DNA of 64,000 nt from Candidatus Omnitrophota bacterium (lineage in GTDB: Bacteria > Omnitrophota > Gorgyraeia > Zapsychrales > Fredricksoniimonadaceae), in NCBI GenBank assembly GCA_028870995.1, contig JAGWOI010000004.1, positions 17,578-81,577 on the forward strand, written 5' to 3'. The notes under the pieces are model-generated. The model saw only the letters and a program-made list of their open reading frames with translations, ran no database searches and was not told where the DNA came from. Positions 11,666-50,393 of this stretch are shown in pieces (within the stretch, counting starts at the first letter, position 1; each line of letters opens with the position of its first letter). Position numbers and translations under genes: made by a program.

Positions 11666-11697
11666 AACTTTACAGCGGCTTTATCTTTTTCTAATAT

Positions 11698-11818: not shown

Positions 11819-11853
11819 TCCTTAATATTTCCTTAATATTCAAGCCCTATATT
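11819..11853 (+). promoter_or_regulatory. Pho-box-like element upstream of the porin-pst operon: perfect 11-bp tandem direct repeat TCCTTAATATT x2, followed 7 bp later by a TATATT -10-like hexamer
   Basis: The repeats are read directly from the sequence. PhoB-type activators bind direct repeats with 11-bp periodicity that replace the -35 element. Confidence 0.45.
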
Positions 11854-11899
11854 TAGCGTGTCCCGAAAAGAATATCAATCACCAAAAGCAGGAGGATTC

Positions 11900-13240: not shown

Positions 13241-13271
13241 GCATGATGAATCCATTAAGAAAGGAAAGTTT

Positions 13272-14282
13272 ATGAAAAAGTTATTAGCTTTAGTTGCCGC
13301 CTTGGGCTTTGCCACCTCAGCCTGGGCCGGTCAGATCCAGCTTACAGGGGCAGGCTCGACTTTTATTTATCCTGCCATTACGAAATGGTTTGAAGCCTAT
13401 GACAGTATTGATCCTAACGTCCAATTCAACTACCAGGCCATTGGATCGGGTGCCGGCATCAAGGAAATTACGGATAAGATCGTGGATTTCGGCGGTACCG
13501 ACGGCCCCATGACGGAAGGCCAAATGGCTGCGGCCCCCGGCAAGATCTACCATATTCCGCTGGTCATGGGCGCGGAAGCCATTGCCTACAATATTCCGGG
13601 AGTCGGCCCTGGATTGAAGTTTACCCCTGATGTTTTGGCCGGCATTTGGTTGGGCGAAATCACCAATTGGAATGATCCCAAGATCACGGCCCAAAATCCT
13701 GGCGTCAATCTTCCTAACATGCCCATCATCGTAGCACACCGCTCCGATGGCAGCGGCACCACCTTCATCTTTACGCATTACCTGAGTTCAGTGAGTCCCG
13801 AATGGTCTTCCAAGGTGGGTTTTAGTACGTCCGTTTCGTGGCCGGTGGGCTTGGGCGGCAAAGGCAATCAGGGCGTTTCAGGTATCCTTACGCAAAATCC
13901 TGGTTCCATAGGGTACGTGGAACTGGCTTATGCCATCCAAAATAAGATCCCTTACGGGGTGGTGGAAAATTCCAGCGGTAATTTTGTGGAGCCTACCGTT
14001 GAGGCGACATCCGAAGCCGCTTCAGGAGTGCCTATTCCGGCGGATTTCCGTGCCTCCATCGTCAACAGCTCGAACCCCAAGGCCTACCCCATTTGCGGGT
14101 TCAGCTGGATGCTGATCTACAAGAATATGGCGGGCGAAGGGGCCAAGGGCAAGGCCTTGGTGGATTTCGCCAAATGGGCGGTCACCGATGGGCAAAAGAT
14201 TTCCGCGCAACTCGACTATGCGCCCCTGCCATCGGACTTGATTGCGAAAATCATGAAGACACTGGATAAAATCAGTTATTAA
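13272..14282 (+). CDS. pstS: Phosphate ABC transporter substrate-binding protein PstS
   Basis: Signal peptide. PstS motifs (GAGSTF.YP…W…Y; SDGSGTTFIFT). Followed by pstCAB. Confidence 0.9.
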   Translation: MKKLLALVAALGFATSAWAGQIQLTGAGSTFIYPAITKWFEAYDSIDPNVQFNYQAIGSGAGIKEITDKIVDFGGTDGPMTEGQMAAAPGKIYHIPLVMGAEAIAYNIPGVGPGLKFTPDVLAGIWLGEITNWNDPKITAQNPGVNLPNMPIIVAHRSDGSGTTFIFTHYLSSVSPEWSSKVGFSTSVSWPVGLGGKGNQGVSGILTQNPGSIGYVELAYAIQNKIPYGVVENSSGNFVEPTVEATSEAASGVPIPADFRASIVNSSNPKAYPICGFSWMLIYKNMAGEGAKGKALVDFAKWAVTDGQKISAQLDYAPLPSDLIAKIMKTLDKISY

Positions 14283-14297
14283 GGTAAAATAATCGGC

Positions 14298-15227
14298 ATG
14301 AGTCGCCATGATACCAGCGACTTGATCTTCAGAAGGGTTTTGGCCGCCTTTCCCATCACCGTTCTGATTATCGTCGCTGGTATTTTTTTTGAGCTCGTTT
14401 ATTCTTCCCTGCCGTCTTTGCATAAATTCGGCATAGGATTCCTTTATCATAGTATTTGGAACCCGGTTGAGGAAAATTTCGGCGCCCTGCCGTTTATTTA
14501 CGGCACCTGTGTCACGTCCTTGGTGGCGCTTTTATTGGCCATTCCCATCGGTGTGGGAGCGGCCATTTATTTGGTGGAATATGCTCCAGTCAAGGTGTCA
14601 AGGGTGATATCAACGTTGGTGGACCTTCTGGCCGCCATTCCCAGTGTTATCTATGGGCTTTGGGGCATTTTTGTCCTGGTGCCTTTTATGAGAAATGTTG
14701 TCCAGCCGTTTTTGGGGAAATATTTCGGTTTCCTGCCTTTGTTCCAGGGCCCCAATTACGGCATCGGCATGCTGGCCGCAAGCGTGATGCTGGCCATCAT
14801 CATCGTGCCGTTCATCATTTCCGTTTCGCGCGAGGTGATTGCGGCCGTCCCGTTTGTTTACAAGGAAAGCGCCTATGCCCTGGGCGCTACCCGCTGGGAG
14901 GCTTTGAGTAATATTGTTTTAAGCTACGGCAAGGCCGGTATTTTGGGCGCCGTGATCCTGGCTCTGGGCCGGGCCATCGGCGAGGTCATGGCTGTGACCA
15001 TGATCATCGGCAACGACCCCAAAATCGCTCTGTCCCTGTTCTCGCCGGGGTATACCTTGGCGAGCGTCATTGCCAATGAGTTCGCGGAAGCTGATTTTCC
15101 GATGTATTTGTCGGCCCTCATCGAGATCGCCCTGGTCCTGTTCCTGGTGGCCATCATTGTCAATATCCTGGCCCGGCTGTTGATATGGTCGGTGACCGGG
15201 GCGCAATCCGCGGAGGCTGTCAAATGA
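14298..15227 (+). CDS. pstC: Phosphate ABC transporter permease PstC
   Basis: Six-TM permease with an EAA-like loop, in operon context. Confidence 0.85.
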   Translation: MSRHDTSDLIFRRVLAAFPITVLIIVAGIFFELVYSSLPSLHKFGIGFLYHSIWNPVEENFGALPFIYGTCVTSLVALLLAIPIGVGAAIYLVEYAPVKVSRVISTLVDLLAAIPSVIYGLWGIFVLVPFMRNVVQPFLGKYFGFLPLFQGPNYGIGMLAASVMLAIIIVPFIISVSREVIAAVPFVYKESAYALGATRWEALSNIVLSYGKAGILGAVILALGRAIGEVMAVTMIIGNDPKIALSLFSPGYTLASVIANEFAEADFPMYLSALIEIALVLFLVAIIVNILARLLIWSVTGAQSAEAVK

Positions 15228-16102
15228 AAGACCTGGTCTTGAAATCCTTTGACGCCACCCGCCTGCGCAGAGAAATTTGGGACAAGGTCATGGTGGTCGT
15301 GCTTTTTTTATGCGCGGCGTGCGTGCTTTTTATCCTATTTATTATCTTGTGGCATTTGATCGCACGTGGGCTTTCTTCATTGAACCCGGCCTTTTTCACG
15401 CATCTGCCCAAGGCCGTCGGCGAATCGGGCGGGGGCATGGCCAATGCCATCATCGGCACCTTTGTCCTGCTGCTGCTGGCAGTGGGTGTCGGCGTGCCGC
15501 TCGGGCTTGGCGCAGGCGTCTATTTAAGCGAGTACGCGCATCAGCGTTTTGCCCAGACGGTGCGTTTTATGACCGATGTTCTCAACGGTGTTCCTTCGAT
15601 CGTCTTCGGCATTTTTTCGTATACGGTCTGCGTGCTTCCCATGAAATCGTTCTCAGCGGTCTCCGGCGGCTTCGCGTTGGGGCTCATGATGATCCCCATG
15701 ATCACGCGCACCAGCGAGCAGTTCGTCAAGATGGTCCCTCACCAGTTGAGGGAAGCGGGCCTGGCCTTGGGGCTCCCCAAATGGCGGGTGATCACCGGTA
15801 TTATTTTACCTTCGGCGATAGGCGGCATCATGACCGGCATTATGGTGGCGCTGGCGCGTGTGGCAGGGGAGACAGCTCCATTGCTGTTTACTGCTTTCGG
15901 CAACCTTCATTACACGCAGTCCCTCATGCAGCCCATTGCGGCCATACCGCTGCAGATCTTCAACTACGCTGTTTCGCCTTACAGCGACTGGCACCGTCAG
16001 GCCTGGGCCGGGGCGCTGGTCTTGATCGTTATAGTTTTTATCATTAACATTTGGGCCCAGTATTTTGTGTACAGCCGTAAACGCTGGTCAGCGGGGAAAT
16101 AG
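15224..16102 (+). CDS. pstA: Phosphate ABC transporter permease PstA
   Basis: ATGA start/stop overlap with pstC at 15224. Permease with an EAA motif region (…REAGLALGLPKWRVI…). Confidence 0.85.
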   Translation: MKDLVLKSFDATRLRREIWDKVMVVVLFLCAACVLFILFIILWHLIARGLSSLNPAFFTHLPKAVGESGGGMANAIIGTFVLLLLAVGVGVPLGLGAGVYLSEYAHQRFAQTVRFMTDVLNGVPSIVFGIFSYTVCVLPMKSFSAVSGGFALGLMMIPMITRTSEQFVKMVPHQLREAGLALGLPKWRVITGIILPSAIGGIMTGIMVALARVAGETAPLLFTAFGNLHYTQSLMQPIAAIPLQIFNYAVSPYSDWHRQAWAGALVLIVIVFIINIWAQYFVYSRKRWSAGK

Positions 16103-16105
16103 GAC

Positions 16106-16867
16106 ATGAACACTAACGGACGCATCGAAGTCAAGAATTTGAACTTTTACTACGGCAACTACCAGGCGCTTAAAAACGTCTCGATGACCGTTGAGCCCCA
16201 CCAGATCGTGGCCATGATCGGGCCGTCGGGCTGCGGCAAATCGACCCTGATCCGTATTTTCAACCGTATGTGCGATTTGATCCCCTCCACCCGTGTGGAG
16301 GGCAAAGTTCTTATCGACGGCAAGGACATTTATACTAAAGATACGGATGTGGTCAGCTTAAGGCGCAAGGTGGGCATGGTGTTCCAGAAATCGACGCCGT
16401 TTCCCAAATCCATTTATGATAATGTCGCCTACGGCTTAAAAATTATAGGCATCAAGGACCATCGCGTGTTGAACGAAACCGTTGAAAAATGCCTTCGCCG
16501 ATCGGCCTTGTGGGACGAGGTCAAAGACCATTTGGGCAAGAGCGCGCTGTCGCTGTCCGGCGGCCAGCAGCAGCGCCTGTGCATTGCCCGGGCCATCGCC
16601 GTTGACCCGGAGATCATTTTAATGGATGAGCCCTGCTCGGCCCTGGACCCTATCGCCACGGCCCGCATCGAGGAGTTGATGGCCGCCTTGAAGGATGAAT
16701 ACACGATCGTGATCGTCACCCATAACATGCAGCAGGCGGCTCGCGTTTCGGACAAGACCGCCTTTTTGATGCACGGGCAGCTTATCGAATACAACAAGAC
16801 CACGGATTTCTTCACCAATCCGTCCAATAAGATCACGGAAGACTATATTACCGGCCGGTTCGGGTAA
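16106..16867 (+). CDS. pstB: Phosphate ABC transporter ATP-binding protein PstB
   Basis: Walker [13 protein letters not shown] signature LSGGQQQRL, Walker B ILMDEP. Confidence 0.92.
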
Positions 16868-16868
16868 T

Positions 16869-16895
16869 AAAAAAAAGGGGACTGTCCCCTTTTTA
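16869..16895. terminator. Palindromic element AAAAAAAAGGGGACTGTCCCCTTTTT between pstB and phoU (bidirectional terminator/attenuator-like). Member of a repeated element family.
   Basis: Perfect palindrome GGGGAC-T-GTCCCC flanked by an A-run and a T-run. Related copies at 21751–21796 and 32147–32170. Confidence 0.5.
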
Positions 16896-16905
16896 GGAGA
16901 AAAAT

Positions 16906-17565
16906 ATGCTCAGAGACAAAATCACCGAATTAAAGCACCAGTTGATCCAGGATGCAGGGCTGGTGGAGGACATGATCAGCCGCAGCATGCGGGGTTTATT
17001 AGAGAAGAACGCCGACATGCTCTACCAGGTGGTCAAGCACCAGGAACCGCGGGTCAACGCCTATGACCGCTCCATCGATGAGTTGTGTGTCGAGACCATT
17101 GCCCGTTTCGAGCCTGTGGCCCGCGACTTGCGCATGGTCATCATGATCATCAAGATGAACAAAGATCTGGAGCGCATGGCCGACCATGCGGTGAATATCT
17201 CCGAAAGCGGGCTGTATCTGATCGCCAATCCCTTTATAGGATCTTATACGGACCTGTTTAAAATGGGCGAAGAGGCAGTGGCCATGCTCAAGGACGCCAT
17301 CAATGCCTTTGTCAATGAGGATGTGGCCACCGCTAGGTCCGTCCGTGACAGGGACAATATTGTGGATGAGGCAGGGGACAAGATCTTAAAGGAGCTGACC
17401 GTGGTCATGCGCGGCAAAAAAGACACCATCCCGCGCGCCCTGGCCTTGATGCGCATTGCCCATAACCTGGAGCGTATCGCGGATCTGTCCACCAACATTG
17501 CCGAAGAAGTCGTATATATAGTGGAAGGCCGCGACATCAAGCACCATAAAGACGATAACGCGTAA
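16906..17565 (+). CDS. phoU: Phosphate signalling regulator PhoU
   Basis: About 219 aa with two PhoU repeats (conserved D…R…E/N motifs). Downstream of pstB. Confidence 0.88.
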   Translation: MLRDKITELKHQLIQDAGLVEDMISRSMRGLLEKNADMLYQVVKHQEPRVNAYDRSIDELCVETIARFEPVARDLRMVIMIIKMNKDLERMADHAVNISESGLYLIANPFIGSYTDLFKMGEEAVAMLKDAINAFVNEDVATARSVRDRDNIVDEAGDKILKELTVVMRGKKDTIPRALALMRIAHNLERIADLSTNIAEEVVYIVEGRDIKHHKDDNA

Positions 17566-17845
17566 AAGTCCTTAAAATCCTTTACTTTACACGCCTGCTG
17601 GTTGTTGTATCCTTAGAAACCCCTTTCTAAGATTAAAATTTCCTTAATTTTTCTTGACTCCTCCTTTAGGCCATGGCAGAATAACCGCAGTTTTATTCCA
17701 CCCAGATGATTTTAAGCTTGACCGAGAAAGGAGGGATGCTCTAGAACGGTTAAAAATCATCACCATGGGGTCTATTTAGTTATTTTTCTAGGCCAATAGA
17801 CACCTAGATATATTCATATAAACCCAATATTCTTGGGAGATAGCA

Positions 17846-19258
17846 ATGAAAAAATTATTAGTTGCTGCTTTATTCGTGGTATTAGCCTCACCGGCTTTCG
17901 CGGCTATTCAGAACGTGAAGGTCAGCGGCGATATCACCACCTCGTTTGTTCATCGCAATGATTTTACCTTGGGCACGCCGACAGGTGATCTGTATCTCGA
18001 CGGCCTCAAGAAGCAAAACGTGTTCCTGACCCAAACTCAGGTCCGCATTGACGCTGACTTAAGCGACAATGTGTCCGCCACAGTTGCGTTGCTCAATGAG
18101 CGCGCCTGGAACAACGGCAGCGGTCTTGCTACCCCTACAGATCAAAACGTTGAGATCTACCTGGCCAATGTGACCTTGCGTGAGTTCTTATATTCTCCGC
18201 TCACCTTGACCATCGGTCGTCAGATCTTCACCTACGGTAACGGCTTGGTTCTGGGCAACGGCCCGGCCAACCAGACCAACGGCGGTTTGCAGTTCATCGC
18301 CCAGGATCTAGGCTGGTCAACCGCTGAAGATGGTGTCAAGGCCACCTTGGATTATAAGCCTTTGACCATCGACCTGATCTACTTCAAGAATGATCAGAAG
18401 AACCTCACGGGCGTGATCCAAAATGGCGGTGCCTCAAGCGCCAACCAAAGCTCAGAAGTGTTCGGTTATAATGCCAATTACCAGCTGAGCGATCCCTGGA
18501 ATACGGTTATCGAACAGTATGTGTTCAGCCGTGTTGATGAAGCCGGTTACACGACCAACAACAAGAGCGATAAGCTCTATGTTCCCGGCTTACGTGCCAG
18601 CACCAATCCTATCAAAGGGTTGAACATCCAGGGCGAAATTGCCTGGCAATTGGGTGATAAGGTTGTTACAGCTAATGGTGGTCAGCAAGCCGAAGGCCGT
18701 GATGCCATGGCTATTCAAGCCCTGGCCAGCTATTCGCTGCCGGTGATGGTTAAATACAAACCGACGGTGAATGCTTCTTACACCTACTTCTCTGGTGATA
18801 AGATGTCAGCCACCAACGGCATCTCAGGCAACAAGGATGCCAGGCACTACAGCGCCTGGGATGTGTTCATGGGAGATTTTGGTGCCGGCACCATCTACAG
18901 CGCCATCTATCCCTTGACCAACATGAACATCCTTTCCGCCGGTGCTTCAGTCAGCCCGTTGGAAGATGTGACCACCAGCTTCACGTGGAGCAATCTATGG
19001 GCTGCGGACAGCTACTCTACCAACAATCCTCTGCAGATCTATCAGCCGACTGAGGGTACTGAGCTCAACACCCTGACTACCAAGAACAACGGTGCTAGAG
19101 GCTTGGGTAATGAGTATGATGTGAACCTGAACTATAACTACACTGAAGATGTTACCTTTGGTGTGAGTTTAGGCTGGTATGTTCCCGGTTCCGCGTTGGC
19201 CAATACCAACCGCGACACCGCGAGCCAAGCCATCGCAAGTTTGGGCGTGAAATTCTAA
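17846..19258 (+). CDS. Outer-membrane beta-barrel porin (second porin flanking the pst locus)
   Basis: Signal peptide (MKKLLVAALFVVLASPAFA). Alternating amphipathic beta-strand pattern. C-terminal …LGVKF with terminal Phe. Confidence 0.6.
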   Translation: MKKLLVAALFVVLASPAFAAIQNVKVSGDITTSFVHRNDFTLGTPTGDLYLDGLKKQNVFLTQTQVRIDADLSDNVSATVALLNERAWNNGSGLATPTDQNVEIYLANVTLREFLYSPLTLTIGRQIFTYGNGLVLGNGPANQTNGGLQFIAQDLGWSTAEDGVKATLDYKPLTIDLIYFKNDQKNLTGVIQNGGASSANQSSEVFGYNANYQLSDPWNTVIEQYVFSRVDEAGYTTNNKSDKLYVPGLRASTNPIKGLNIQGEIAWQLGDKVVTANGGQQAEGRDAMAIQALASYSLPVMVKYKPTVNASYTYFSGDKMSATNGISGNKDARHYSAWDVFMGDFGAGTIYSAIYPLTNMNILSAGASVSPLEDVTTSFTWSNLWAADSYSTNNPLQIYQPTEGTELNTLTTKNNGARGLGNEYDVNLNYNYTEDVTFGVSLGWYVPGSALANTNRDTASQAIASLGVKF

Positions 19259-19284
19259 ACTTGTCGATTGCAAGTGGTTGTTTC

Positions 19285-19320
19285 AAAACCCCCGTTCGAT
19301 CCTTGAACGGGGGTTTTTTA
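19285..19320 (+). terminator. Rho-independent terminator
   Basis: AAAACCCCCGTTC-GATCCTT-GAACGGGGGTTTTTT hairpin plus a T-run directly after the porin stop codon. Confidence 0.8.
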
Positions 19321-19487
19321 TTTTCTCGACGAGAAATCGCTTTCCCCCATTTTAAAAACCCTTTAAAATTTTTGACATTATTATTTCCATTTGTGTTTTC
19401 TTTGTTATGATAATTTTAAAGATACATAAGTCATTAAAATTTAAGCCGTTATACGTTGTTTTTCCGTAGAAGAGAGCCAGTCGCCGT

Positions 19488-20066
19488 ATGACCCGTGATG
19501 AGATATATGATCACCTTGCCAAGGTTTATTTAGGCAAGCGCGAAGGTGCATCGCCTAAAAAAAGTAAACCCAAAAAAATCAACCGCTCGCTGTTGGTGAT
19601 CAACGTGGTGATCACCTTGGTCATCGTGATTTCGGCGGTCTACGGGTTTACGGCTTTCCTGACGCGCCGCGGTGATTTGAAGTCGCAGGTTTTTTACGCG
19701 TTGAACAATGAGCCGATCCGCATTGCGTATGACCTTAATGACCCGTATCCGTCGACAAAGACATTTTCGGTCACGCTCCCGACCAAGGATGTGTCCAAAT
19801 ACAGCGCCTTGAACATTTCGCTGCGGGGCTTGGACGGGGCCTATCCGGGGATCGTGAAGGTGGTGGTCACCAACCAGAAGGACGAGCGGGGGACCTATTA
19901 TATCCAGAATGTGGGCTCAACCTGGCAGAAGGCCAGTATCCCCTTTGACAAATTGAATTTGACGGACTGGACGACCGTCACCAAGGTGTCCTTTGTCCTG
20001 GAAGCATGGAATGTGGATTTCCGTCGGGGAACGCTGTTGATCGACGGGGTCAGTTTCTCAAATTAA
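19488..20066 (+). CDS. Single-pass membrane protein with a C-terminal beta-rich extracytoplasmic domain; first gene of an operon with the ParA-like ATPase
   Basis: Basic cytoplasmic N-terminus (…SPKKSKPKKINRS), TM helix (LLVINVVITLVIVISAVYGF), then a ~130-aa domain. Stop codon is 14 nt before the ParA-like start. Confidence 0.5.
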   Translation: MTRDEIYDHLAKVYLGKREGASPKKSKPKKINRSLLVINVVITLVIVISAVYGFTAFLTRRGDLKSQVFYALNNEPIRIAYDLNDPYPSTKTFSVTLPTKDVSKYSALNISLRGLDGAYPGIVKVVVTNQKDERGTYYIQNVGSTWQKASIPFDKLNLTDWTTVTKVSFVLEAWNVDFRRGTLLIDGVSFSN

Positions 20067-20080
20067 GGAGACAGTTGTTT

Positions 20081-21256
20081 ATGAAAATCATTTCCATTGC
20101 CAACCAAAAAGGCGGGTGCGGTAAAACCACGACGGCCATCAACCTGGCCTCGACGCTGTCCTTCAACGGCCAGAAAACGCTTTTGATCGACCTCGATCCC
20201 CAGGCGCACGCGACCCTGGGTCTGAACGTCGAGGACCAGAACAGCCTTTACAACTGCATCTCCAAACTGACCCCGCATAAACTGAAGATCAAGGACATCA
20301 TAAAGCCGGTGGGCAAGAGCTTTGATATCGTGCCTTCCAACGTGTTGGTGGGCACCCTGGAACAGGAACTGGCCGATGAGATCGGCCGGGAACTTAAGCT
20401 GGTGGAGATTATCGATGAAATCAAGGGCCTTTATGACTATATTCTCATCGACTGCCCGCCCTCCCTGGGGTTTCTCACGGTCAACTCCATCCGCGCCAGC
20501 GATGAACTGATCATTCCGGTTGAGACCAGCCGTTTCTCCATGCAGGGGGTCGACCACCTGATGGACATCACCAATTTGATCCGCGAGAGGCTTGGCCATC
20601 CGGTCAAGCCCAAGGTGCTGATCACCATGTTCGACTCCCGCCTGCGGCATTCCTTTACCATGTTAAACAAGATGAAAGAGAAATTCAGCGGCATGCTCTT
20701 CGACACCATCGTGCATGTCAACGTCAAGCTTAAAGAGGCCGCGGTCATGGGCGAGGCGGTCATCCGCTACGACAAATACTGCCGCGGTTCCAAGGACTAT
20801 TTGAGCCTGGCCCGCGAAATCCTCACCGCCGACCGCCAGCCGATCGTGCCGGAAGTCAAGGTGACCAGTATGCCTACCGTGGCGGCGGTCCTGGAAGCCC
20901 TTCAAGAACCCAAGGAGGTCCAGGCGTCGGCGCCTGCCTCATACCAGCCTTCCGAACGCATGCAGGAATTGATCCAAAAGGAAACTCAGGAGCTCTTGAA
21001 GGCCACCACCTTTTCTCTGGCAGCGCCGGAGGCCAAATCGGTGTATGTGACCGGTTCCTTCAATGATTGGTCGCTGGACGAGAACTGCCGGATGGCCGGC
21101 CAGGACGGCCTCTGGACCCTGAAGGTCAGCCTCAAGCCGGGGACCTATAAATATCAGTTCATCGTCGACGGCAAATGGCAGGAGGATCCGGCCAACGCCA
21201 ACATGGAGCGCAATTCCTTCGGCGACATCAATTCCCTGATCGAGGTCAAGGCCTAA
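20081..21256 (+). CDS. ParA/MinD-family P-loop ATPase fused to a C-terminal CBM48 (AMPK-beta glycogen-binding-like) domain
   Basis: AAGGAG ribosome-binding site at 20065–20070 and ATG at 20081. Deviant Walker A KGGCGKTT. The C-terminus (VYVTGSFNDWSLDE…GTYKYQFIVDGKWQEDP) matches the CBM48 consensus (GSFNNW…Y.YKF.VDG.W). Confidence 0.8.
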   Translation: MKIISIANQKGGCGKTTTAINLASTLSFNGQKTLLIDLDPQAHATLGLNVEDQNSLYNCISKLTPHKLKIKDIIKPVGKSFDIVPSNVLVGTLEQELADEIGRELKLVEIIDEIKGLYDYILIDCPPSLGFLTVNSIRASDELIIPVETSRFSMQGVDHLMDITNLIRERLGHPVKPKVLITMFDSRLRHSFTMLNKMKEKFSGMLFDTIVHVNVKLKEAAVMGEAVIRYDKYCRGSKDYLSLAREILTADRQPIVPEVKVTSMPTVAAVLEALQEPKEVQASAPASYQPSERMQELIQKETQELLKATTFSLAAPEAKSVYVTGSFNDWSLDENCRMAGQDGLWTLKVSLKPGTYKYQFIVDGKWQEDPANANMERNSFGDINSLIEVKA

Positions 21257-21265
21257 AAGGGGACT

Positions 21266-21288
21266 GGCTCTTTTGAAGCGCTTCAAGA
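21266..21288 (+). terminator. Hairpin terminator after the ParA-like gene
   Basis: CTCTTTTGAAGCGCTTCAAGAG near-perfect palindrome, preceded by AAAAGGGGACTGGCTC, which is a degenerate copy of the GGGGACTGTCCCC element. Confidence 0.5.
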
Positions 21289-21295
21289 GTTCCTT

Positions 21296-21613
21296 ATGAA
21301 ATCCAATTTTTCAAAAGAGGATGTCAGCGACGGAAAAATGTATGCGGTCCTGGCCTACCTGTCCATCTTTTGCATCATCCCCCTCATCCTTAAGAAAAAC
21401 AATCCTTTTGTTTTAAATCACGGCCGGCAAGGCCTGGTGCTTTTCGTGGCCGAGGTGGCCACCCTGGTCATCAGCATTGTGGTGCCGTGGGCTTTCCGGC
21501 CTTTCCTGTTCATTCTGTTCGCCTTTTCTTTCTGGGGCATGGTCACGGCCATTCGCGGCCAGGTGGTCGAGCTGCCGGTAGTGGCCGGGATCGCCGAGAA
21601 AATTACAATATAG
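21296..21613 (+). CDS. Small integral membrane protein (DUF4870-like)
   Basis: 105 aa with two or three TM helices. N-terminal …MYAVLAYLSIFCIIPLI motif. Confidence 0.5.
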   Translation: MKSNFSKEDVSDGKMYAVLAYLSIFCIIPLILKKNNPFVLNHGRQGLVLFVAEVATLVISIVVPWAFRPFLFILFAFSFWGMVTAIRGQVVELPVVAGIAEKITI

Positions 21614-21615
21614 AT

Positions 21616-22137
21616 ATGTTCCATAAAATCGTTGATGTCCTCAAAGAGGTCTTTTGGATCAAGCCTTCCCGGAAGAAACCCAAGACCGCCCGGCGTAAGA
21701 GCGCCAAAAGGCCTGCTGTTAAAAAAAAGGCGCTCAGGCCAAAACCCAAGAAAAAGGGGACAGTCCCCTTGAAAAAAAGGGGACAGTCCCCTTTTTCTGA
21801 AAAGCCGGCGGCGGCCAAGCCGGTCAAACCCAGGCCGGCGCCTAAAGCTGCCGTCAAAGGTGCCAAGTCTTCTGCCAGGGCCATTGATCCTTCCTTGACC
21901 GAAGTAGGGAACATCACGCATTATTTCGACCGCATTAAGGTTTGTGTGGTCCAGGTGACCTTCGGAACCGTTTTAATAGGGGACAAGTTGACCGTTTTGG
22001 GACCGAAGACAAAGTTCATTCAAAAAGTGTGGTCCATGCAAATTGAAAGTGAAGATGTAAAAGTTGCTAAGAAAGGTCAATTAATAGGGTTGAAGGTTGA
22101 TAAAGTTGTTTCTGTAGGCGACAAGGTTTACAAATGA
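21616..22137 (+). CDS. Lys/Pro/Ala-rich histone-H1-like N-terminal region fused to a C-terminal EF-Tu-domain-2-like beta-barrel. Coding status of the basic region is uncertain because it contains two copies of a palindromic repeat.
   Basis: ATG at 21616. Basic tract: KKPKTARRKSAKRPAVKKKALRPKPKKKGTVPLKKRGQSPFSEKPAAAKPVKPRPAPKAAVKGAK. C-terminus (GNITHYFDRIKVCVVQVTFGTVLIGDKLTVLG…VAKKGQLIGLKVDKVVSVGDKVYK) resembles the translation-factor beta-barrel domain. Confidence 0.45.
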   Translation: MFHKIVDVLKEVFWIKPSRKKPKTARRKSAKRPAVKKKALRPKPKKKGTVPLKKRGQSPFSEKPAAAKPVKPRPAPKAAVKGAKSSARAIDPSLTEVGNITHYFDRIKVCVVQVTFGTVLIGDKLTVLGPKTKFIQKVWSMQIESEDVKVAKKGQLIGLKVDKVVSVGDKVYK

Positions 22138-22158
22138 GATTGCCCCCTTGGGGGGGAT

Positions 22159-22353
22159 ATGATATATTTAATTACGGCTATGAATTCCAAAGGGCAAAAT
22201 ATCATCGAGTATATCCTGATGGTGACCGCAGTCTTGCTGGTTTGTATCTACTTTTTTACAGCCGGCCCCATGAAGCAAAGCGTTAACACCGCCCTCAACA
22301 CCATGGTCAATGAGATCCAAAACATCAACAGCCAGATCAACTTCAGCCCCTAA
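22159..22353 (+). CDS. flp: Flp-family (type IVb / Tad) prepilin
   Basis: 64 aa with a short leader then the G/QNIIEY motif, the Flp G-XXXX-EY prepilin-peptidase processing signature, followed by a hydrophobic helix (ILMVTAVLLVCIYFF). Confidence 0.6.
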   Translation: MIYLITAMNSKGQNIIEYILMVTAVLLVCIYFFTAGPMKQSVNTALNTMVNEIQNINSQINFSP

Positions 22354-22361
22354 TTTCGCTC

Positions 22362-22730
22362 ATGAAGAAACTTAAGGCGCATCATCAACAGCTGGTCCGC
22401 CGTTATTTGCTCTGGGCCTACAAAACCACCAGGGAGGATTTCGAGCGCATCGAGCGCAAGACCACCCAGTTGCTTGTCGACGAATACATTTTGGCGTATT
22501 TGACCACCCAAAAAGCCCGGGTCCCTGAAACATTCAAGGCCTATATCGCCGCCAAGCACAAGGACGAAGTGAAGTTAAAGTCACAGCCGGAGTATCTTCA
22601 TTTGAAGAACCGTCTGGAAGCGGTTGAGGCGGCCATCAGGCACTTTTTGGGCGCCAAAGAATTGGCCGGTATTGAGAAACTTTATGAAGGGGAGTTTACC
22701 AGGCGCATCCTGGAGGCGAGGGAACACTAA
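22362..22730 (+). CDS. Hypothetical protein
   Basis: 122-aa ORF with no recognisable motif. Confidence 0.4.
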   Translation: MKKLKAHHQQLVRRYLLWAYKTTREDFERIERKTTQLLVDEYILAYLTTQKARVPETFKAYIAAKHKDEVKLKSQPEYLHLKNRLEAVEAAIRHFLGAKELAGIEKLYEGEFTRRILEAREH

Positions 22731-22951
22731 AACTTCTGGGATTCCTGGTCTTCTATTTTCTGCTTCATGCTGTCCATCAGTTCCCGCTGTTTTTCTTTAG
22801 TCTGATCAATGCTTTGCTGGGCCTCGGTTTTGACTGCGGAAGAATCAATCGCTGCAGGGGCATGAGAGAAGCTTTTGTTCAGGCCGCCCCAGAGCATGCC
22901 AAGGGCCCACATACCGGCGACAACTATGATAATGATGATTCCAAAGTTCAT
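22727..22951 (-). CDS. Small membrane protein (hypothetical)
   Basis: 74 aa with an N-terminal TM helix (IIIIIVVAGMWALGMLWGG) and a charged C-terminal tail. Confidence 0.4.
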   Translation of the reverse strand: MNFGIIIIIVVAGMWALGMLWGGLNKSFSHAPAAIDSSAVKTEAQQSIDQTKEKQRELMDSMKQKIEDQESQKF

Positions 22952-22976
22952 GTGAATAGTATATAATAAATTTCGT

Positions 22977-23423
22977 ATGCGGGTACTGTTTTTGATTATA
23001 TCTGTTTTTTTGGCTTGGGCCGGGCAAGCAAGGGCCGTGGAAGTTTATGTGGGCGGCCACCGGTATGATTCTTTCCAGGCTTATCGGGCGGCCCAAAAAG
23101 CAGTCCGTACCGCCCTAGTCACCGCGGCCCTGGACGAGCAGCAGGAAGAGTATAAGAACAAGGTCAAAATCACCCGGTTCAATGAGGCCCAGGCGCACCG
23201 GTTGTACGTGTTGGGTGTCGAAAATGGAATGAAAGAGGCCGCGCAGAGGTTTTTCATAAATCCGGGAGCGGCCGGCGCTCCTGCTGCTCAGCATATATCC
23301 TCAGAACAATTGCAAAAGGCCCTTGAGCAGGCAATGGGCAAGTCCAAAGGGCCGAAACTTTTGATCGCCGGTCCCGGCAAGGTGCGCGTCATGGCCCTGG
23401 CGCCCAATGAACAGGCCAAATAG
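22977..23423 (+). CDS. Secreted hypothetical protein
   Basis: Signal peptide (MRVLFLIISVFLAWAGQARA). 148 aa. Confidence 0.45.
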   Translation: MRVLFLIISVFLAWAGQARAVEVYVGGHRYDSFQAYRAAQKAVRTALVTAALDEQQEEYKNKVKITRFNEAQAHRLYVLGVENGMKEAAQRFFINPGAAGAPAAQHISSEQLQKALEQAMGKSKGPKLLIAGPGKVRVMALAPNEQAK

Positions 23424-23452
23424 GGGGCCAGGCGCACGGTTTGAGGTTTTTC

Positions 23453-23481
23453 TTGACTAGGTTGCGCAATCCAGCTATAAT
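23453..23481 (+). promoter_or_regulatory. Sigma70-type promoter for rpsO-pnp (TTGACT-17-TATAAT)
   Basis: Consensus hexamers with a 17-bp spacer, about 70 nt upstream of the rpsO start. Confidence 0.65.
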
Positions 23482-23550
23482 TTGCGCTCTTATATAGGTC
23501 AAATGAATAAGCGCGGGGTCGCGCTAAAAGGAGGAAGTACGTTGGTTCTC

Positions 23551-23811
23551 ATGAAAGAAAAGAAAACAGAAGTCATCAGCCGTTTCAAGACCCACGCCAA
23601 GGACACGGGCTCTGCTCCTGTCCAGATCGCGGTCCTGACGGAACAGATCAATCAGCTCAACGAGCATTTTAAAACCCACAAGAAGGATTTCCATTCCCGC
23701 CGTGGCATGTTGATGCTCATCGGCAAGCGCCGCCGTATGCTGGACTATCTCCAGAAGCAAGATCCCAAAAAATACGAAGAAACCATCAATAAGCTCGATT
23801 TACGCAAGTAA
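23551..23811 (+). CDS. rpsO: 30S ribosomal protein S15
   Basis: Start refined to ATG 23551, with an AAAGGAGG ribosome-binding site. Conserved S15 sequence …[25 protein letters not shown]…. Confidence 0.9.
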
Positions 23812-23848
23812 CCTCACTCGAGCACTTTTTTAAGAAAGGGTCTTTTAT

Positions 23849-25954
23849 ATGGCACAAGCGCGTGTGGAAATTCCTTTTGGATCTTCCAGTCTAGTCATTG
23901 AATCCGGTAAATTGGCCAAGCAGGCCAATGGGGCTGTAACCGTTTCCTGCGGCGGTACCGTTGTTTTGGTCACGGCCTGTATGGCCAAGCAGCCCAGGGA
24001 GGGGATCGATTTCTTCCCCCTGACGGTTGAATACCAGGAAAAAACTTATTCCGCAGGGAAGATCCCCGGCGGCTTTTTCAAGCGTGAAGGCCGTTCGACG
24101 GAACGTGAAATCCTCGTCTCCCGCCTGATCGACCGTTCCATCCGCCCCTTGTTCCCCGAAGGCTGCCTGAACGAAGTGCAGGTCATTGCCTCCGTCCTGA
24201 GCCATGACGGCGAAAATGATCCCGACATCCTGGCCATGATCGGCGCCTCCGCGGCGCTTATGGTTTCGGATATCCCTTTTGACGGCCCCATCGGTGCTTC
24301 AAGAGTCTGTCTTATCGACGGTACTCTCACGGCCAACCCCACCTTTGCCCAGCGCAAAGAAAAGAACACCATGGATTTGGTAGTGGCAGGTTGGGGCAGC
24401 GGCATTGTCATGATCGAAGGCGAGTCCATTGAAGTTCCCGAACCGCAAGTGCTGGAAGGCCTGAAAATGGCATTGGACACCTTACAGGCTGCCAAGAACG
24501 CCCAGGTGCAGTTGGCCAAGCAGGCGGGGAAGGCCAGGGTTGAAATACCTTTACGCCACGTGAATCCGGATTTTGCCGCCTACGTGCGTCAGCAGGCCAT
24601 CGGGCCCTTGAATGACGCCTACACCAAAATTGCCGACAAGCAAAAGCGCGAAGAGGCGGTCAATGCGGTATTTGCCAAACTGACCGAGAACATGGACGCC
24701 TATGCCCAATTCAACAGCAAGGAGCATGAGATCGGCAAGGGCGATATCGCCGCTCAATTTGAAATTTTGCAGTACGAGGTCATCCGCAACAACGTCTTTG
24801 ACAAAGGCATCCGTGCCGACGGCCGCGGCTTGAAGGACATCCGAGACATCAGCTGCGAGGCAGGCGTACTGCCACGCACGCACGGATCGGCCCTGTTCAC
24901 CCGCGGGCAGACCCAGAGCTTAGGGGTGATCACGCTGGGCACCAAGGATGACGAGCAGCTCATCGAAGGCCTGGAAGAAACCAGTTACAGGACCTTTATG
25001 CTTCATTACAATTTTCCGTCTTTCAGCGTGGGTGAAACCAAGCCCATGCGCGGGCCTGGCCGCCGCGAGATCGGCCATGGGGCCCTTGCAGCCAAGGCCG
25101 TCAAGGCCATGCTGCCGTCGAAGGATGAGTTTCCCTATACGATCCGTGTCGTTTCCGAGATCCTGGAATCCAACGGTTCGTCATCCATGGCCTCGGTGTG
25201 TTCCGCCTCCCTGGCTTTAATGGACGCCGGTGTGCCCATCAAGGCGCCGGTGGCCGGTATTTCCATCGGCCTTATTTCCGATGAGAAACGCAAGGTGCTC
25301 ATCACCGACATCATGGGCCTGGAAGATCATTTCGGCGACATGGATTTCAAGGTGGCCGGTACCTCCAAGGGCGTCAACGCCATCCAGCTGGACCTGAAGA
25401 TCAGAGAGCTTTCCATCGAACTTTTGGAAAAGGCCATCGCCCAGTCCAAGGAAGCGCGCACGATCATTTTAGACAAGATGCATGCCGCGATCTCCTCACC
25501 CCGCGCAGACCTTTCACCGTACGCGCCGCGCATCGTGACCCTGCAGATTCCTCAAGACAAGATCGGCGAGGTCATAGGGCCGGGCGGCAAAACCATCCGC
25601 AAGATGATCGAAGAAAGCGGTGTCACTTCCATCGACATCGAAGAGGACGGCAAGGTCATCGTGGCTTCCCCTGACAAGGAAGCGCTCGACCGCGCCGTTG
25701 GGATGATAAAATCTTTGACCGAAGAGCCTGAGATTGGTAAAATCTACGAAGCAACCGTGAAACGCATCATGAATTTCGGCGCCTTCGTGGAATTCTTACC
25801 TGGCCGCGAAGGGTTGGTCCACGTTTCCGAGATGGCCAATAAATTTGTCAAGGACGTCAACGAGGTAGTCAAGGTCGGCGACAAATTCAAGGTCAAGCTC
25901 GTGGAAAAAGATGAGATGGGCCGGTTTAACCTGAGCAAAAAGCAGGCCGACTAA
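23849..25954 (+). CDS. pnp: Polyribonucleotide nucleotidyltransferase (PNPase)
   Basis: 701 aa with two RNase PH domains, a KH domain (…IGEVIGPGGKTIRKM…) and an S1 domain (…GKIYEATVKRIMNFGAFVEF…). Downstream of rpsO. Confidence 0.92.
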   Translation: MAQARVEIPFGSSSLVIESGKLAKQANGAVTVSCGGTVVLVTACMAKQPREGIDFFPLTVEYQEKTYSAGKIPGGFFKREGRSTEREILVSRLIDRSIRPLFPEGCLNEVQVIASVLSHDGENDPDILAMIGASAALMVSDIPFDGPIGASRVCLIDGTLTANPTFAQRKEKNTMDLVVAGWGSGIVMIEGESIEVPEPQVLEGLKMALDTLQAAKNAQVQLAKQAGKARVEIPLRHVNPDFAAYVRQQAIGPLNDAYTKIADKQKREEAVNAVFAKLTENMDAYAQFNSKEHEIGKGDIAAQFEILQYEVIRNNVFDKGIRADGRGLKDIRDISCEAGVLPRTHGSALFTRGQTQSLGVITLGTKDDEQLIEGLEETSYRTFMLHYNFPSFSVGETKPMRGPGRREIGHGALAAKAVKAMLPSKDEFPYTIRVVSEILESNGSSSMASVCSASLALMDAGVPIKAPVAGISIGLISDEKRKVLITDIMGLEDHFGDMDFKVAGTSKGVNAIQLDLKIRELSIELLEKAIAQSKEARTIILDKMHAAISSPRADLSPYAPRIVTLQIPQDKIGEVIGPGGKTIRKMIEESGVTSIDIEEDGKVIVASPDKEALDRAVGMIKSLTEEPEIGKIYEATVKRIMNFGAFVEFLPGREGLVHVSEMANKFVKDVNEVVKVGDKFKVKLVEKDEMGRFNLSKKQAD

Positions 25955-25976: not shown

Positions 25977-28247
25977 ATGAAGCTTGAACACCTCAATGAG
26001 ATCAAGGGCATTGTGATCTTGGGCTTTAGCCTTATTTTGCTGGCTAGCCTGGTGTCCTTCACTCCGATAGACCTTTCCTGGTTTACTTCAAGACCTAACG
26101 ACCCTGTCCACAACTGGATCGGCATTGCCGGCGCTTACGCTGCCGGCATCTTTTTTTTCATGGTCGGTTACAGCGCCTATTTTCTGGTGGGCATCGGCAT
26201 CTTTTTCAGCTGGAACAAATTCACCTCGCGCGATCTGCCTTTTAATTTCTTTAAGTTCTTAAGCATCCTGATCCTGTTCATTGTGGCCGCCGGCCTGTTC
26301 AGTTTTTTTGCAGGCGGCAATGCCGGCGCCGGTTTTATCAACGGAGGGGTCATCGGCGACGTGTTCAGCGGTTTTCTGGTGAAGTATTTCCAGCCGCTGG
26401 GCGCCTTGATCATCCTGTTTACGCTGGGTGCGCTGGCCCTGGTCGTGGCGGGGGAATTCCTGGTGTCACCGTTCTTTGTTTGGCTGGGCAGAAGTGTTTG
26501 GGGCTTCATCCAGCGGGCTTCTAAATTGGTGCCTGCTTCTGCCGTGCCCTCCGCCAACAAGCCGGCGGCTAAAATGGCCAGAAAACCGGTGCAGGAAGCC
26601 GATGAGGACGATGCGCCTGCGGGGCTCAATGAGGAAATAAAAGAAAAATTATTCAGAAGCACGGTGCAGCCTACGCCATTGGCCCAGCAGCCCGCAGCGT
26701 CTAAACCGGCCCCTGCGGCGGCCGCCAAGCCAAATATCCATATCGTCGCACCGCCTAAAACCGAAGTTCCGGCCGATGCCCCCAAACCCGAGCCGAAAGT
26801 GGTCGGGGAATATCATTTGCCCGCGGTCGACCTGCTCAATGATCCGCCGCCGGTTTCCAATACTAAGGTACAGGAAAACCTGATGAACGGTGCCAAGATC
26901 CTGGAAGAGACGCTGGCCGATTTCGGGGTCAATGTCAAGGTGGTGGACATCGAGCGCGGTCCGGTGATCACCCGTTATGAATTACAGCCCGCCCCCGGCG
27001 TCAAGATCCAGAGCATCGCCAGTTTGTCTGATGACCTGGCCCTGGCCTTAAGCGCGCAGGCGGTGCGTATTTTAGCGCCCATCCCCGGCAAGAATCGGGT
27101 GGGTATCGAAGTGCCCAACGGCGCTTCCGCCGCCGTTTTCTTAAAAGATGTGCTGACCCAAGGCCGGGCGCGCCACAGCGATTCGAAACTGGACCTGGCC
27201 ATCGGCAAGGACACCTCCGGCCATCCGGTCATTTCGGACTTGTCGGACATGCCGCATCTTTTGGTTGCAGGGACCACGGGCAGCGGTAAAACCGTTTGCT
27301 TAAACAGCCTGATCATGTCCATTTTGTTTAAGGCCTCACCGTCCGAGGTCAAGTTTATCATGATTGACCCCAAGATGGTGGAGATGATCCCTTATAATGA
27401 CCTGCCGCATTTACTCTGCCCGGTCGTCACGGACGCCAAGAAAGTCCCGGCCGCCCTGAATTGGGTGGTGATGGAGATGGAGAACCGCTATAAGACCTTA
27501 AGCAAGGAAGCGGTGCGCAATATCAAAGGCTATCACGCCAAAGGCCTGCAGATGCCTTATATTATCGTTGTCGTCGATGAATTGGCGGACCTGATGCAGA
27601 CCTCGGCCAAGGCCGTGGAAGGGGCGATCACCCGTCTGGCCCAGTTGGCCCGCGCTGTGGGCATCCATTTGATCCTGGCCACGCAGCGCCCGTCGGTGGA
27701 TGTTATTACCGGTGTCATCAAGGCCAATTTCCCGTCGAGAATTTCATTTAAAGTGGCCTCCAAGGTGGATTCCCGCACGGTCCTCGACACCAACGGCGCC
27801 GAAACTCTGCTCGGCAAGGGAGACTTCCTTTTTATGAGGACCGGTGATCCCAAGCCGCTGCGCGGCCAGTGCTGCTATGTGTCGGACGAAGAGATCAACC
27901 GGGTCATAGATTTTATTAAAAAACAGGGGCAGCCGGAGTATAATGAGAGCGTTCTTAAACCTCAGCCGGCCGCCGGCGGCGGCTCCATGGAAGAGAAGGA
28001 TGAAATGTATGACGAGGCCGTGCGGGTGGTGATCGAGACCAACCAGGCTTCGGTGACGATTTTGCAGCGACGCCTGCGCCTGGGCTACGGCCGCGCGGCG
28101 CGGTTGGTCGACATGATGGAACAAAACGGCATTGTGGGCCCGTATGCCGGCAGCAAGGCCAGGGACATCCTGGTGGACCGCGAAAAATGGCTTTTAGAAA
28201 ACATGGGGGAAGCAAAGACCGATGTCGTCGATGGACAGCAACAATAG
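25977..28247 (+). CDS. ftsK: DNA translocase FtsK
   Basis: N-terminal TM domain, PA-rich linker, motor domain with Walker A GTTGSGKT and an FtsK gamma-like C-terminus. Confidence 0.9.
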   Translation: MKLEHLNEIKGIVILGFSLILLASLVSFTPIDLSWFTSRPNDPVHNWIGIAGAYAAGIFFFMVGYSAYFLVGIGIFFSWNKFTSRDLPFNFFKFLSILILFIVAAGLFSFFAGGNAGAGFINGGVIGDVFSGFLVKYFQPLGALIILFTLGALALVVAGEFLVSPFFVWLGRSVWGFIQRASKLVPASAVPSANKPAAKMARKPVQEADEDDAPAGLNEEIKEKLFRSTVQPTPLAQQPAASKPAPAAAAKPNIHIVAPPKTEVPADAPKPEPKVVGEYHLPAVDLLNDPPPVSNTKVQENLMNGAKILEETLADFGVNVKVVDIERGPVITRYELQPAPGVKIQSIASLSDDLALALSAQAVRILAPIPGKNRVGIEVPNGASAAVFLKDVLTQGRARHSDSKLDLAIGKDTSGHPVISDLSDMPHLLVAGTTGSGKTVCLNSLIMSILFKASPSEVKFIMIDPKMVEMIPYNDLPHLLCPVVTDAKKVPAALNWVVMEMENRYKTLSKEAVRNIKGYHAKGLQMPYIIVVVDELADLMQTSAKAVEGAITRLAQLARAVGIHLILATQRPSVDVITGVIKANFPSRISFKVASKVDSRTVLDTNGAETLLGKGDFLFMRTGDPKPLRGQCCYVSDEEINRVIDFIKKQGQPEYNESVLKPQPAAGGGSMEEKDEMYDEAVRVVIETNQASVTILQRRLRLGYGRAARLVDMMEQNGIVGPYAGSKARDILVDREKWLLENMGEAKTDVVDGQQQ

Positions 28248-50392: not shown

Positions 50393-50393
50393 C

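Follow-up and report, generated by a model that had tools for sequence, protein, structure and literature searches.

Organization of the locus

The window analysed here, i.e. the whole 64,000-nucleotide stretch of contig JAGWOI010000004.1 from a Candidatus Omnitrophota bacterium, encodes a protein, ParA-CBM48, in which an ATPase of the ParA/Soj type is followed by a linker and a C-terminal carbohydrate-binding module (CBM) of the CBM48/AMPK-β type. Its gene is the second of four in a predicted operon, in the order TM192 - ParA-CBM48 - TM105 - KP173, which, judging from comparison of homologous loci, is conserved in Omnitrophota (Table 1). As argued below, this operon may encode a system for the handling of intracellular glycogen.

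The TAA stop codon of TM192 (20064-20066) is separated from the ATG of ParA-CBM48 (20081) by an intergenic gap of 14 nt; the mechanical open reading frame (ORF) of ParA-CBM48 opens further upstream, at 20006, yet its homologues begin at MKIIS. The KP173 start codon lies 2 nt past the TM105 stop. A preliminary description of this DNA, made from its letters alone, had reported the 14-nt gap and a strong ribosome-binding site, and both are borne out, with the AAGGAG element overlapping the TM192 stop codon. It had also proposed an operon of a membrane protein and the ATPase; the pairing with TM192 holds, but two further conserved genes, at 21296-21613 and 21616-22137, had been missed, and the end given for the feature, 21288, has to be corrected, being 32 nt past the ParA-CBM48 stop codon.

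Between the porin gene and the TM192 gene there are a terminator-like hairpin and a candidate promoter (together 19285-19411), an arrangement that is consistent with co-transcription of TM192 and ParA-CBM48. The porin appears to be a separate transcription unit in the window, though it is a conserved upstream neighbour.

Table 1. Features of the ParA-CBM48 locus, with positions in the window
Feature	Position	Strand	Basis
Alginate_exp-like outer-membrane β-barrel (porin), 470 aa	17846-19258	+	Pfam PF13372, E 2.3e-14
Intrinsic-terminator-like hairpin, 15-bp stem then T-run, end of porin transcription unit	19285-19317	+	
σ70-like promoter candidate, TTTCCA-16-TATGAT with upstream TG, before operon	19384-19411	+	consensus match only
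TM192 gene, bitopic inner-membrane protein, 192 aa	19488-20066	+	sequence read, homologues
TM192 residues 1-18, cytoplasmic N-terminal helix MTRDEIYDHLAKVYLGKR, putative ParA-interaction motif	19488-19541	+	
TM192 residues 33-62, transmembrane helix, N-terminus inside	19584-19673	+	AlphaFold2, positive-inside count
TM192 residues 68-191, periplasmic β-sandwich, CBM-like fold	19689-20060	+	AlphaFold2, Foldseek
Ribosome-binding site AAGGAG, overlapping TM192 stop, 10 nt 5' of ParA-CBM48 ATG	20065-20070	+	sequence read
ParA-CBM48 gene, 391 aa	20081-21256	+	ORF reading
ParA/Soj-type ATPase domain, residues 1-250	20081-20830	+	Pfam, PDB sequence search
Flexible linker, residues 251-308 (disordered 259-287, short helix 292-304)	20831-21004	+	AlphaFold2
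CBM48/AMPK-β-type module, residues 309-391, plus stop codon	21005-21256	+	PF16561, 1Z0N, AlphaFold2
TM105 gene, small polytopic membrane protein, 105 aa, DUF4870/MamF_MmsF-like	21296-21613	+	
KP173 gene, 173 residues, disordered Lys/Pro/Ala-rich N-terminal half and β-barrel	21616-22137	+	

The ATPase domain

The N-terminal domain is matched by Pfam AAA_31 (PF13614; residues 1-171, E 6.2e-52) and by CbiA (E 4e-16), both within residues 1-221, and the closest sequence in the PDB is that of the chromosomal ParA of Myxococcus xanthus (8RAY, E 1.8e-48), followed by Soj from Helicobacter pylori and Thermus thermophilus (6IUB, 1WCV). All the features expected of a ParA/MinD (SIMIBI) ATPase are present, i.e. 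a deviant Walker A motif (N8-Q-K10-G-G-C-G-K15-T-T, with K10 as the signature lysine), the Walker A'/switch aspartates D37 and D39, and the Walker B aspartate D124. In an alignment of 122 diverse fusions, which share only 32-66% identity with the window protein, K10, G11, G12, K15, T16, D37, D39 and D124 are invariant. The assignment to deviant Walker A ATPases made in the preliminary description is correct.

In Bacillus subtilis Soj, R189 and R218, the latter equivalent to R238 of M. xanthus ParA, are required for nucleoid binding (PMC6393308, PMC12462528). The corresponding residues in the window protein are R187 and K216, with lysine or arginine at these positions in 110/122 and 94/122 of the fusions, respectively; two further residues of the Soj DNA-binding patch are less conserved. 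The retention of basic residues at both positions makes ATP-dependent dimerization and non-specific DNA binding by ParA-CBM48 plausible.

One interpretation of these similarities, and of database entries naming the protein 'chromosome partitioning protein' or 'Soj', is that ParA-CBM48 is simply the chromosome-segregation ParA with an accessory C-terminal domain: its nearest solved structures are of chromosomal ParA/Soj proteins and the non-specific DNA-binding residues are kept. This interpretation is, however, the most improbable of those considered here. The ParB box II motif (GERRxRA) does not occur in any ORF of 88 loci, within flanks of up to 10 kb on each side, nor is there a ParB among the window proteins, about 30 in number, that were scanned for domains. 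The family has a signature of its own, namely Cys13 in the Walker A motif (KGGCGKTT) and His43 (DPQ-G/A-H), each found in >90% of members, and has dedicated partners other than ParB (see below). ParABS systems are the norm in Desulfobacterota and Gammaproteobacteria, where ParA-CBM48 also occurs, its presence in groups with canonical ParABS implying that it is a paralogue. The same applies to Myxococcota, in which the family is present and canonical ParABS is well characterized in M. xanthus (PMC12462528). Literature searches on ParB in Omnitrophota gave nothing useful. Taken on sequence, the ParA-CBM48 family appears to form a clade of orphan ParAs that derives from Soj-type proteins.

Other ParA/MinD subfamilies fit less well. 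The C terminus of the window protein is a CBM β-sandwich, in place of the amphipathic membrane-targeting helix that characterizes MinD, and its score against the MinD model TIGR01968 is 52 bits (cut-off 212.9). The BcsQ equivalog model TIGR03371 gives 68.3 bits (cut-off 157.85), and bcs genes are absent from the window, although PF06564 (CBP_BcsQ), matched over its full length, reaches 36.9 bits (cut-off 21.3). With respect to McdAB, the neighbours of ParA-CBM48 are TM192, TM105 and KP173, no carboxysome protein is present among the scanned window proteins, and similarity to the McdA structure 6NOO is low (E 8.5e-14) and confined to the N-terminal part. Because defining features of each are lacking, ParA-CBM48 is not considered a member of the ParABS, MinD, BcsQ or McdAB systems.

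The C-terminal carbohydrate-binding module

The preliminary description had predicted that profile searches would identify the C-terminal domain as CBM48/AMPK-β, and such matches were obtained: PF16561 (AMPK1_CBM) aligns with residues 317-390 (E 1.7e-16; 60.6 bits, cut-off 26.8), and PF02922 (CBM_48) scores 29.4 bits against a cut-off of 22.4, the matches together spanning residues 307-390. The best PDB sequence is the CBM of AMPK β1 (1Z0N, E 1.6e-9). An AlphaFold2 model built on 145 homologues (overall predicted local distance difference test score, pLDDT, 88) has a confident ParA domain (residues 1-250) and a β-sandwich (residues 309-389; pLDDT 91-96 for the CBM) with a disordered linker between them, in which pLDDT is <50 at residues 259-287. 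Linker length varies from ~0 to ~350 residues across the family, being ~50 in the window protein.

Five residues of AMPK β1, W100, K126, W133, L146 and N150, are reported to contact carbohydrate (Polekhina et al. 2005). When the domain was aligned with rat AMPK β1 and positions were scored over the 122 fusions, the position of W100 was found to be tryptophan in 122/122 (W330 in the window protein) and that of W133 in 118/122 (W366); that of K126 is lysine or arginine in 117/122, that of L146 is Phe, Tyr or Leu in 96/122 (F380), that of G147, which is conserved in the window protein, is glycine in 117/122, and that of N150 is Asn or Asp in 114/122 (N384). Conservation of the sugar-contact residues despite the overall divergence of the fusions argues for the retention of a glycan-binding site in the CBM48.

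It may be considered that the E-set domain has become a module for protein-protein interactions or for another type of ligand, without glycan binding, in which case the cargo would be something else. Related β-sandwiches do have non-glycan roles, e.g. the type IX secretion system (T9SS) plug model NF052315 matches residues 308-378 with 33 bits, below its cut-off, and the window protein has glutamine in place of K126. The near invariance of both sugar-stacking tryptophans and of the Asn150 position, and the recurrence nearby of several α-glucan enzyme families (see below), nonetheless render this very unlikely.

Separately, proteins composed of 4-18 tandem CBM48-like repeats were observed, i.e. 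P0122 (WP_305767917.1, Candidatus Epulopiscium viviparus), P0132, P0137 and P0206; the Epulopiscium protein P0122, of 1812 aa, has 18 such repeats. These could be polyvalent glycogen scaffolds.

Distribution of the family

When 1.84 billion cluster representatives were searched, ParA with one C-terminal CBM48 was the architecture of 130 among the 150 best-matching clusters (50% identity). A profile search gave thousands of matches, those with names being from Omnitrophota, Planctomycetota (Phycisphaerales, Tepidisphaeraceae) and the 'PVC group'. Scanning one genome per species identified relatives of ParA-CBM48 in 593 species representatives; the best 80 of these 593 relatives align with the full or nearly the full length of the query, except that the matches of L032 and L054 extend only to approximately residue 300-320, and include members from Omnitrophota, Planctomycetota, Myxococcota, Desulfobacterota, Eisenbacteria, Zixibacteria and Margulisbacteria, together with Auribacterota, Rokubacteria, Thiohalobacter/Thiogranum and a spirochaete.

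The names given to family members are all generic; an identical protein, from a Candidatus Omnitrophica metagenome-assembled genome (MAG), is annotated as 'AAA family ATPase'. Full-text literature searches returned no paper on a ParA-CBM48/AMPK1_CBM fusion and none of relevance on ParA and glycogen granules. Thus, the statement in the preliminary description that the architecture matches no characterized system stands, but the architecture is not unusual: the family is very large and spread across more than ten phyla, rather than rare. What seems to be new is the fusion of a cargo module to the ATPase, the signature of the family and the portable peptide on its partners, for which no characterized counterpart was found.

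The membrane partner TM192

The neighbouring genes of 86 loci were clustered, including an Omnitrophota clade (the window, L001 and L008-L030; 46-81% ParA identity). Wherever TM192 was detected in the Omnitrophota clade (23 loci), it occupies position -1 on the same strand. Two loci reached in the reverse direction, by starting from remote homologues of TM192 (25% and 53% identity), have an identical gene order. The TM192 family comprises 1404 clusters; its named members are all annotated as 'hypothetical protein' and come from Omnitrophota, and Pfam domains are absent throughout. By sequence, TM192 itself has no significant Pfam match (CIA30, E 0.026 only), no NCBIfam match and no PDB match.

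In the AlphaFold2 model of TM192 (pLDDT 81.5), a helix (residues 3-18) is joined by a disordered, Lys-rich stretch to a transmembrane helix (33-62), which is followed by a β-sandwich (68-191; pLDDT ~90). Comparison of the β-sandwich with the PDB using Foldseek gave top matches that are nearly all CBMs, i.e. CBM11 (1V0A, E 7e-7), CBM30, CBM8 and CBM4, a fold that is recognized only through the predicted structure and not from sequence. Among 120 homologues, E133, W146, W161, E172, W174 and N175 of the C-terminal domain are invariant, as are Y7, H9, L10, A11, Y14 and L15 at the N terminus. Over the 15 residues that precede the transmembrane helix there are on average 5.9 lysines and arginines, compared with 2.1 after the helix, and 119/120 homologues have an N-in, C-out topology by the positive-inside rule. 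The earlier view of a single-pass protein with a basic cytoplasmic N-tail is thus upheld; it was incomplete in that the ParB-like N-terminal motif and the periplasmic CBM-like domain had been missed.

A ParB-like motif shared by different partners

The motif in the cytoplasmic N-terminal helix of TM192 is EIYDHLAKVYLG; that of partner genes in other phyla reads KLGRGLEDVSHLFLS and resembles the ParB peptide that activates ParA. The TM192 N terminus is predicted to be helical, like ParB's motif for binding ParA; that of M. xanthus ParB forms a short helix. A loose pattern capturing the shared motif, [LIVMF][SA]x[LIVFMT][FY][LFIM][SGTDAPE] within the first 85 residues, matches an adjacent same-strand gene in 47/86 loci, compared with 3/1014 genes located at least three positions away.

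In other phyla, the gene directly 3' of ParA-CBM encodes a FleN/FlhG/MinD-like protein with a degenerate P-loop (best compared with 5J1J, E 6e-33), the N terminus of which, K-LGRGL-(E/S)D(V/I)SH(L/I)FLS, is closely similar to the N-terminal ParA-interaction motif of ParB. In many cases a weakly NucS-like domain comes after this FleN-like protein or is fused with it, and the two appear to constitute a second, uncharacterized partner architecture. Examples with the ParB-like start KLGRGLEDISYLFLS are at L002 9107-10704, L005 9185-10873 and L006 9285-10889; L003, L004 and L007 have the fused form of 521-540 aa. A third type of partner is a membrane protein of 250-300 aa with QLADVYF near its N terminus. 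Hidden Markov models of the FleN-like and NucS-like partners gave no match in a six-frame translation of the window, which indicates that the Omnitrophota clade has a different partner set.

The conserved -1 position, together with the shared N-terminal motif, gives good support to the assignment of TM192 as a true conserved partner, or anchor, of ParA-CBM48, as the preliminary description had suggested for the membrane protein. More generally, the comparison shows what is, by its sequence, a putative ParB-type ParA-activating peptide behaving as a portable module on unrelated partner scaffolds.

Conserved neighbours and α-glucan enzymes

The order of the block in the Omnitrophota clade is (Alginate_exp porin) - (GH57) - TM192 - ParA-CBM - TM105 - KP173. 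TM105 is found at +1 in 15 loci, its homologues giving a weak match to PF09685; KP173 is at +1 or +2 in 21 loci, and the porin family at -2 or -3 in 17 loci. Residues 97-173 of KP173 form a barrel like domain II of EF-Tu, with profile matches to domain II of eEFSec and eIF5B (E 1e-3) and a weak Pfam match to GTP_EFTU_D2/D4. A palindromic hairpin lies within the Lys-rich coding part of KP173 (21748-21797); an Rfam scan of 17000-24000 gave sub-threshold matches only, on this palindrome (36 bits; gathering score 53), which is probably a coincidence of the coding sequence.

Lys/Ala/Pro-rich DNA-binding tails tether storage granules to the nucleoid in the cases of PhaF and PhaM (PHA/PHB granules) and AlgP (polyphosphate granules). 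By analogy, the Lys-rich tail of KP173 probably binds DNA in the same manner, a proposal that is offered as a lead only. The KP173 tail is similarly rich in Lys, Pro and Ala and is encoded with a predicted storage-polymer-binding protein, which suggests that a storage granule may be segregated by riding piggy-back on the nucleoid. Unlike these proteins, to which KP173 has no sequence relationship, its globular part resembles EF-Tu domain II, and the PhaF, PhaM and AlgP systems use no ATPase. DUF4912 proteins located beside a GH57 branching enzyme (L002 11601-12647; L005 11850-13280; L006 11915-12943) have Lys-rich N-terminal tails like that of KP173, indicating that such tails recur on glycogen-linked proteins.

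GH57 or GH77 α-glucan enzymes, of several subfamilies, occur within ~6 genes of ParA-CBM48 in 17/86 loci, which is far above chance for a single-copy gene. An amylopullulanase-like GH57 is directly 5' of TM192 in 11/23 Omnitrophota-clade loci, and again in L088; the Omnitrophota-clade enzyme begins at the catalytic 'HQP' motif and matches the GH57 amylopullulanase 8ZYI (E ~1e-91). A GH57 branching enzyme ('HLP' motif, BE_C domain), often beside DUF4912, is present in L002, L005, L006, L052 and L056, and L079 has a third type, GH57-DUF3536, beside a GH77 4-α-glucanotransferase. The neighbouring GH57/GH77 enzymes lack signal peptides, i.e. are cytoplasmic. Omnitrophota MAGs are reported to encode glycogen synthesis (PMC8542988).

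The composition of the block raises the possibility that ParA-CBM48 is a BcsQ-like organizer of envelope-polysaccharide or glucan-transport machinery, which would position or assemble a trans-envelope complex comprising the porin, TM192 and TM105, while on the side of the cytoplasm the CBM48 would bind glucan that is imported or nascent. Conservation of the Alginate_exp-type porin upstream, the CBM11-like periplasmic domain of TM192, the presence of two membrane proteins in the operon, the above-threshold CBP_BcsQ match and the sugar-nucleotide genes found upstream at several loci of other phyla would all be accommodated by such a role. However, a strong terminator parts the porin from the operon in the window, the conserved block has no glycosyltransferase, synthase or ABC/Wzx exporter, the BcsQ equivalog score is far under its cut-off, and the ligands of CBM48 are α-glucans, with the linked GH57 enzymes being cytoplasmic; a function as envelope organizer is thus quite unlikely.

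Proposed function and comparison with known systems

The interpretation that we favour, with a probability of roughly 0.5, is that the operon encodes an ATP-driven system of the ParA type for the tethering or partitioning of glycogen inside the cell, in which the ATPase would bind the α-glucan directly. ATP-bound ParA-CBM48 dimers would sit on the nucleoid and hold glycogen particles via the two CBMs of each dimer, many dimers per particle providing avidity. The cytoplasmic N-helix of TM192 would dock at the interface of the ParA dimer, in the manner of the ParB peptide, and there either stimulate ATP hydrolysis or capture the dimer at the inner membrane, with the periplasmic CBM-like domain of TM192 probably fixing the activator to an envelope glycan and the Lys-rich tail of KP173 probably binding DNA. 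Glycogen would in this way be kept distributed along the nucleoid, so as to be inherited by both daughter cells, or be handed to defined envelope sites.

Several observations weigh against this proposal. Foremost among them, the activator motif is carried by a membrane protein and the cargo-binding domain by the ATPase, whereas the activator of a canonical ParA sits on the cargo, so that the classical diffusion-ratchet is not directly applicable. The periplasmic CBM-like domain of TM192 and the conserved outer-membrane porin point to the envelope rather than to a cytoplasmic granule, and the CBM of the window protein has Q359 in place of AMPK β1 K126. The α-glucan link made in the preliminary description is supported by the GH57/GH77 neighbours, but outside the Omnitrophota clade glycogen genes are missing from the vicinity of most loci, and among the ~30 window proteins scanned there is no glycogen enzyme. 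The positioning of glycogen granules by ParA-CBM48 is put forward as an inference.

The position of the activator peptide can also be understood if ParA-CBM48 is a sensor of glycogen or energy state, the cargo being the TM192 complex or a division/envelope machine and the CBM48 serving, as in AMPK-β, as a regulatory sensor or sink by which the activity or availability of ParA would depend on how much glycogen is present. In the logic of ParA systems a peptide on TM192 marks TM192 as the cargo; moreover, the CBM is nearest to that of AMPK-β, a regulatory module, and it is constant while partner types differ widely among phyla. Such a sensor would still require glycan binding, the adjacency of GH57 fits a direct role in glycogen equally well, and the identity of a TM192 complex has no independent support. 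Overall, the sensor appears unlikely, if less so than the other alternatives to glycogen tethering or partitioning.

Comparison with characterized systems helps to place ParA-CBM48. With ParA/Soj of ParABS (M. xanthus 8RAY, H. pylori, T. thermophilus) it shares the fold, the catalytic motifs and the basic DNA-binding positions, as well as a partner with a short N-terminal helical motif, which in other phyla (LGRGL...FLS) is very like the ParB N-peptide. It differs in having no adjoining ParB in the 88 loci, an additional C-terminal CBM48 and the KGGCGKTT and DPQ(G/A)H signature, and in that its partners are a membrane protein (in the window) or FleN-like/NucS-like proteins (in other phyla) rather than a CTPase clamp. 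Relative to the AMPK-β CBM (1Z0N), W100, W133, G147 and N150 are conserved, L146 is replaced by Phe and K126 by Gln, and the module is fused to a P-loop ATPase and not to a kinase scaffold. As with BcsQ, a ParA/MinD-family ATPase is tied to polysaccharide and membrane proteins; unlike the present protein, BcsQ has no CBM, and the window has neither bcs genes nor an equivalog match above the cut-off.

The closest parallel is probably with McdA/McdB, PpfA-TlpT, ParC-ParP and PomZ-PomXY, in which an orphan ParA ATPase serves non-DNA cytoplasmic cargo, presumably with the nucleoid as matrix, and a small dedicated partner is encoded alongside; by analogy, ParA-CBM48 would work most like these orphan ParA cargo systems. 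In McdAB and the other orphan systems, however, the cargo adaptor both recognizes the cargo and activates the ATPase, whereas with ParA-CBM48 cargo recognition (by the CBM48) is on the ATPase and the activator motif on the membrane protein.

Extended to the family, the proposal is that ParA-CBM48 proteins are a widespread, unrecognized ATP-driven class that positions and partitions glycogen, with a ParB-like peptide grafted onto very different partners, namely a transmembrane protein with a periplasmic CBM in Omnitrophota and FleN-like pseudo-ATPase and NucS-like proteins elsewhere. Depots of glycogen in the cytoplasm would thereby be linked both with the nucleoid and with fixed sites in the envelope. 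This extension is tentative, and is considered somewhat doubtful as it stands.

Other features of the window

Upstream of the porin and ParA-CBM block is a phosphate-acquisition block (1177-17565) comprising PhoU_div, a PHO4 transporter, Porin_5, pstS-pstC-pstA-pstB and phoU. A functional link to phosphate was considered and rejected: pst-phoU is upstream only in the closest relatives (the window, L001 and L008-L010) and is absent from more distant Omnitrophota-clade loci, so the adjacency is judged to be incidental. Inside the phosphate-uptake block is an ORF of 2915 aa (2918-11665, + strand, TTG start) without an above-threshold Pfam domain. 'Giant genes' have been described for Omnitrophota (bioRxiv 10.1101/2023.11.21.568195), of which this ORF may be one.

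Immediately downstream of the operon, a 64-aa ORF (22159-22353, + strand) has an N terminus resembling Flp and class-III signals, KGQNIIEYILMV; it scores 21 bits with PF04021, just under the cut-off, and recurs at +2 to +4 in 5 Omnitrophota-clade loci. FtsK and RodZ are encoded at 25977-29058, and a division and cell-wall cluster, recognized by ORF order, extends over 47403-62948, where only MraW/RsmH (47403-48305) and FtsA (61716-62945) were scanned. These genes indicate an organism with a conventional peptidoglycan division apparatus. A defence-system reading was also tried and rejected, PADLOC giving no meaningful match.

Implications

ParA/MinD ATPases are a general bacterial solution to the placing of chromosomes, plasmids, carboxysomes, chemoreceptor arrays and division sites. 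Among bacterial carbon stores, glycogen is the most common, and we know of no positioning machinery for it. Omnitrophota have, to our knowledge, no cultured, genetically tractable members. In Escherichia coli, uneven inheritance of glycogen has been linked to ageing-like asymmetry (PMC4836754).

The ParA-CBM48 family suggests that bacteria may actively organize their glycogen stores, and an ATPase bearing a glycogen-binding module makes this possibility directly testable. If correct, the proposal would mean that a storage polysaccharide has segregation machinery dedicated to it, which would be the first such case. The portable ParB-type peptide may be useful in predicting the partners of other orphan ParAs, and, for the Omnitrophota, the present analysis provides an initial clue to the function of a conserved operon of four genes.

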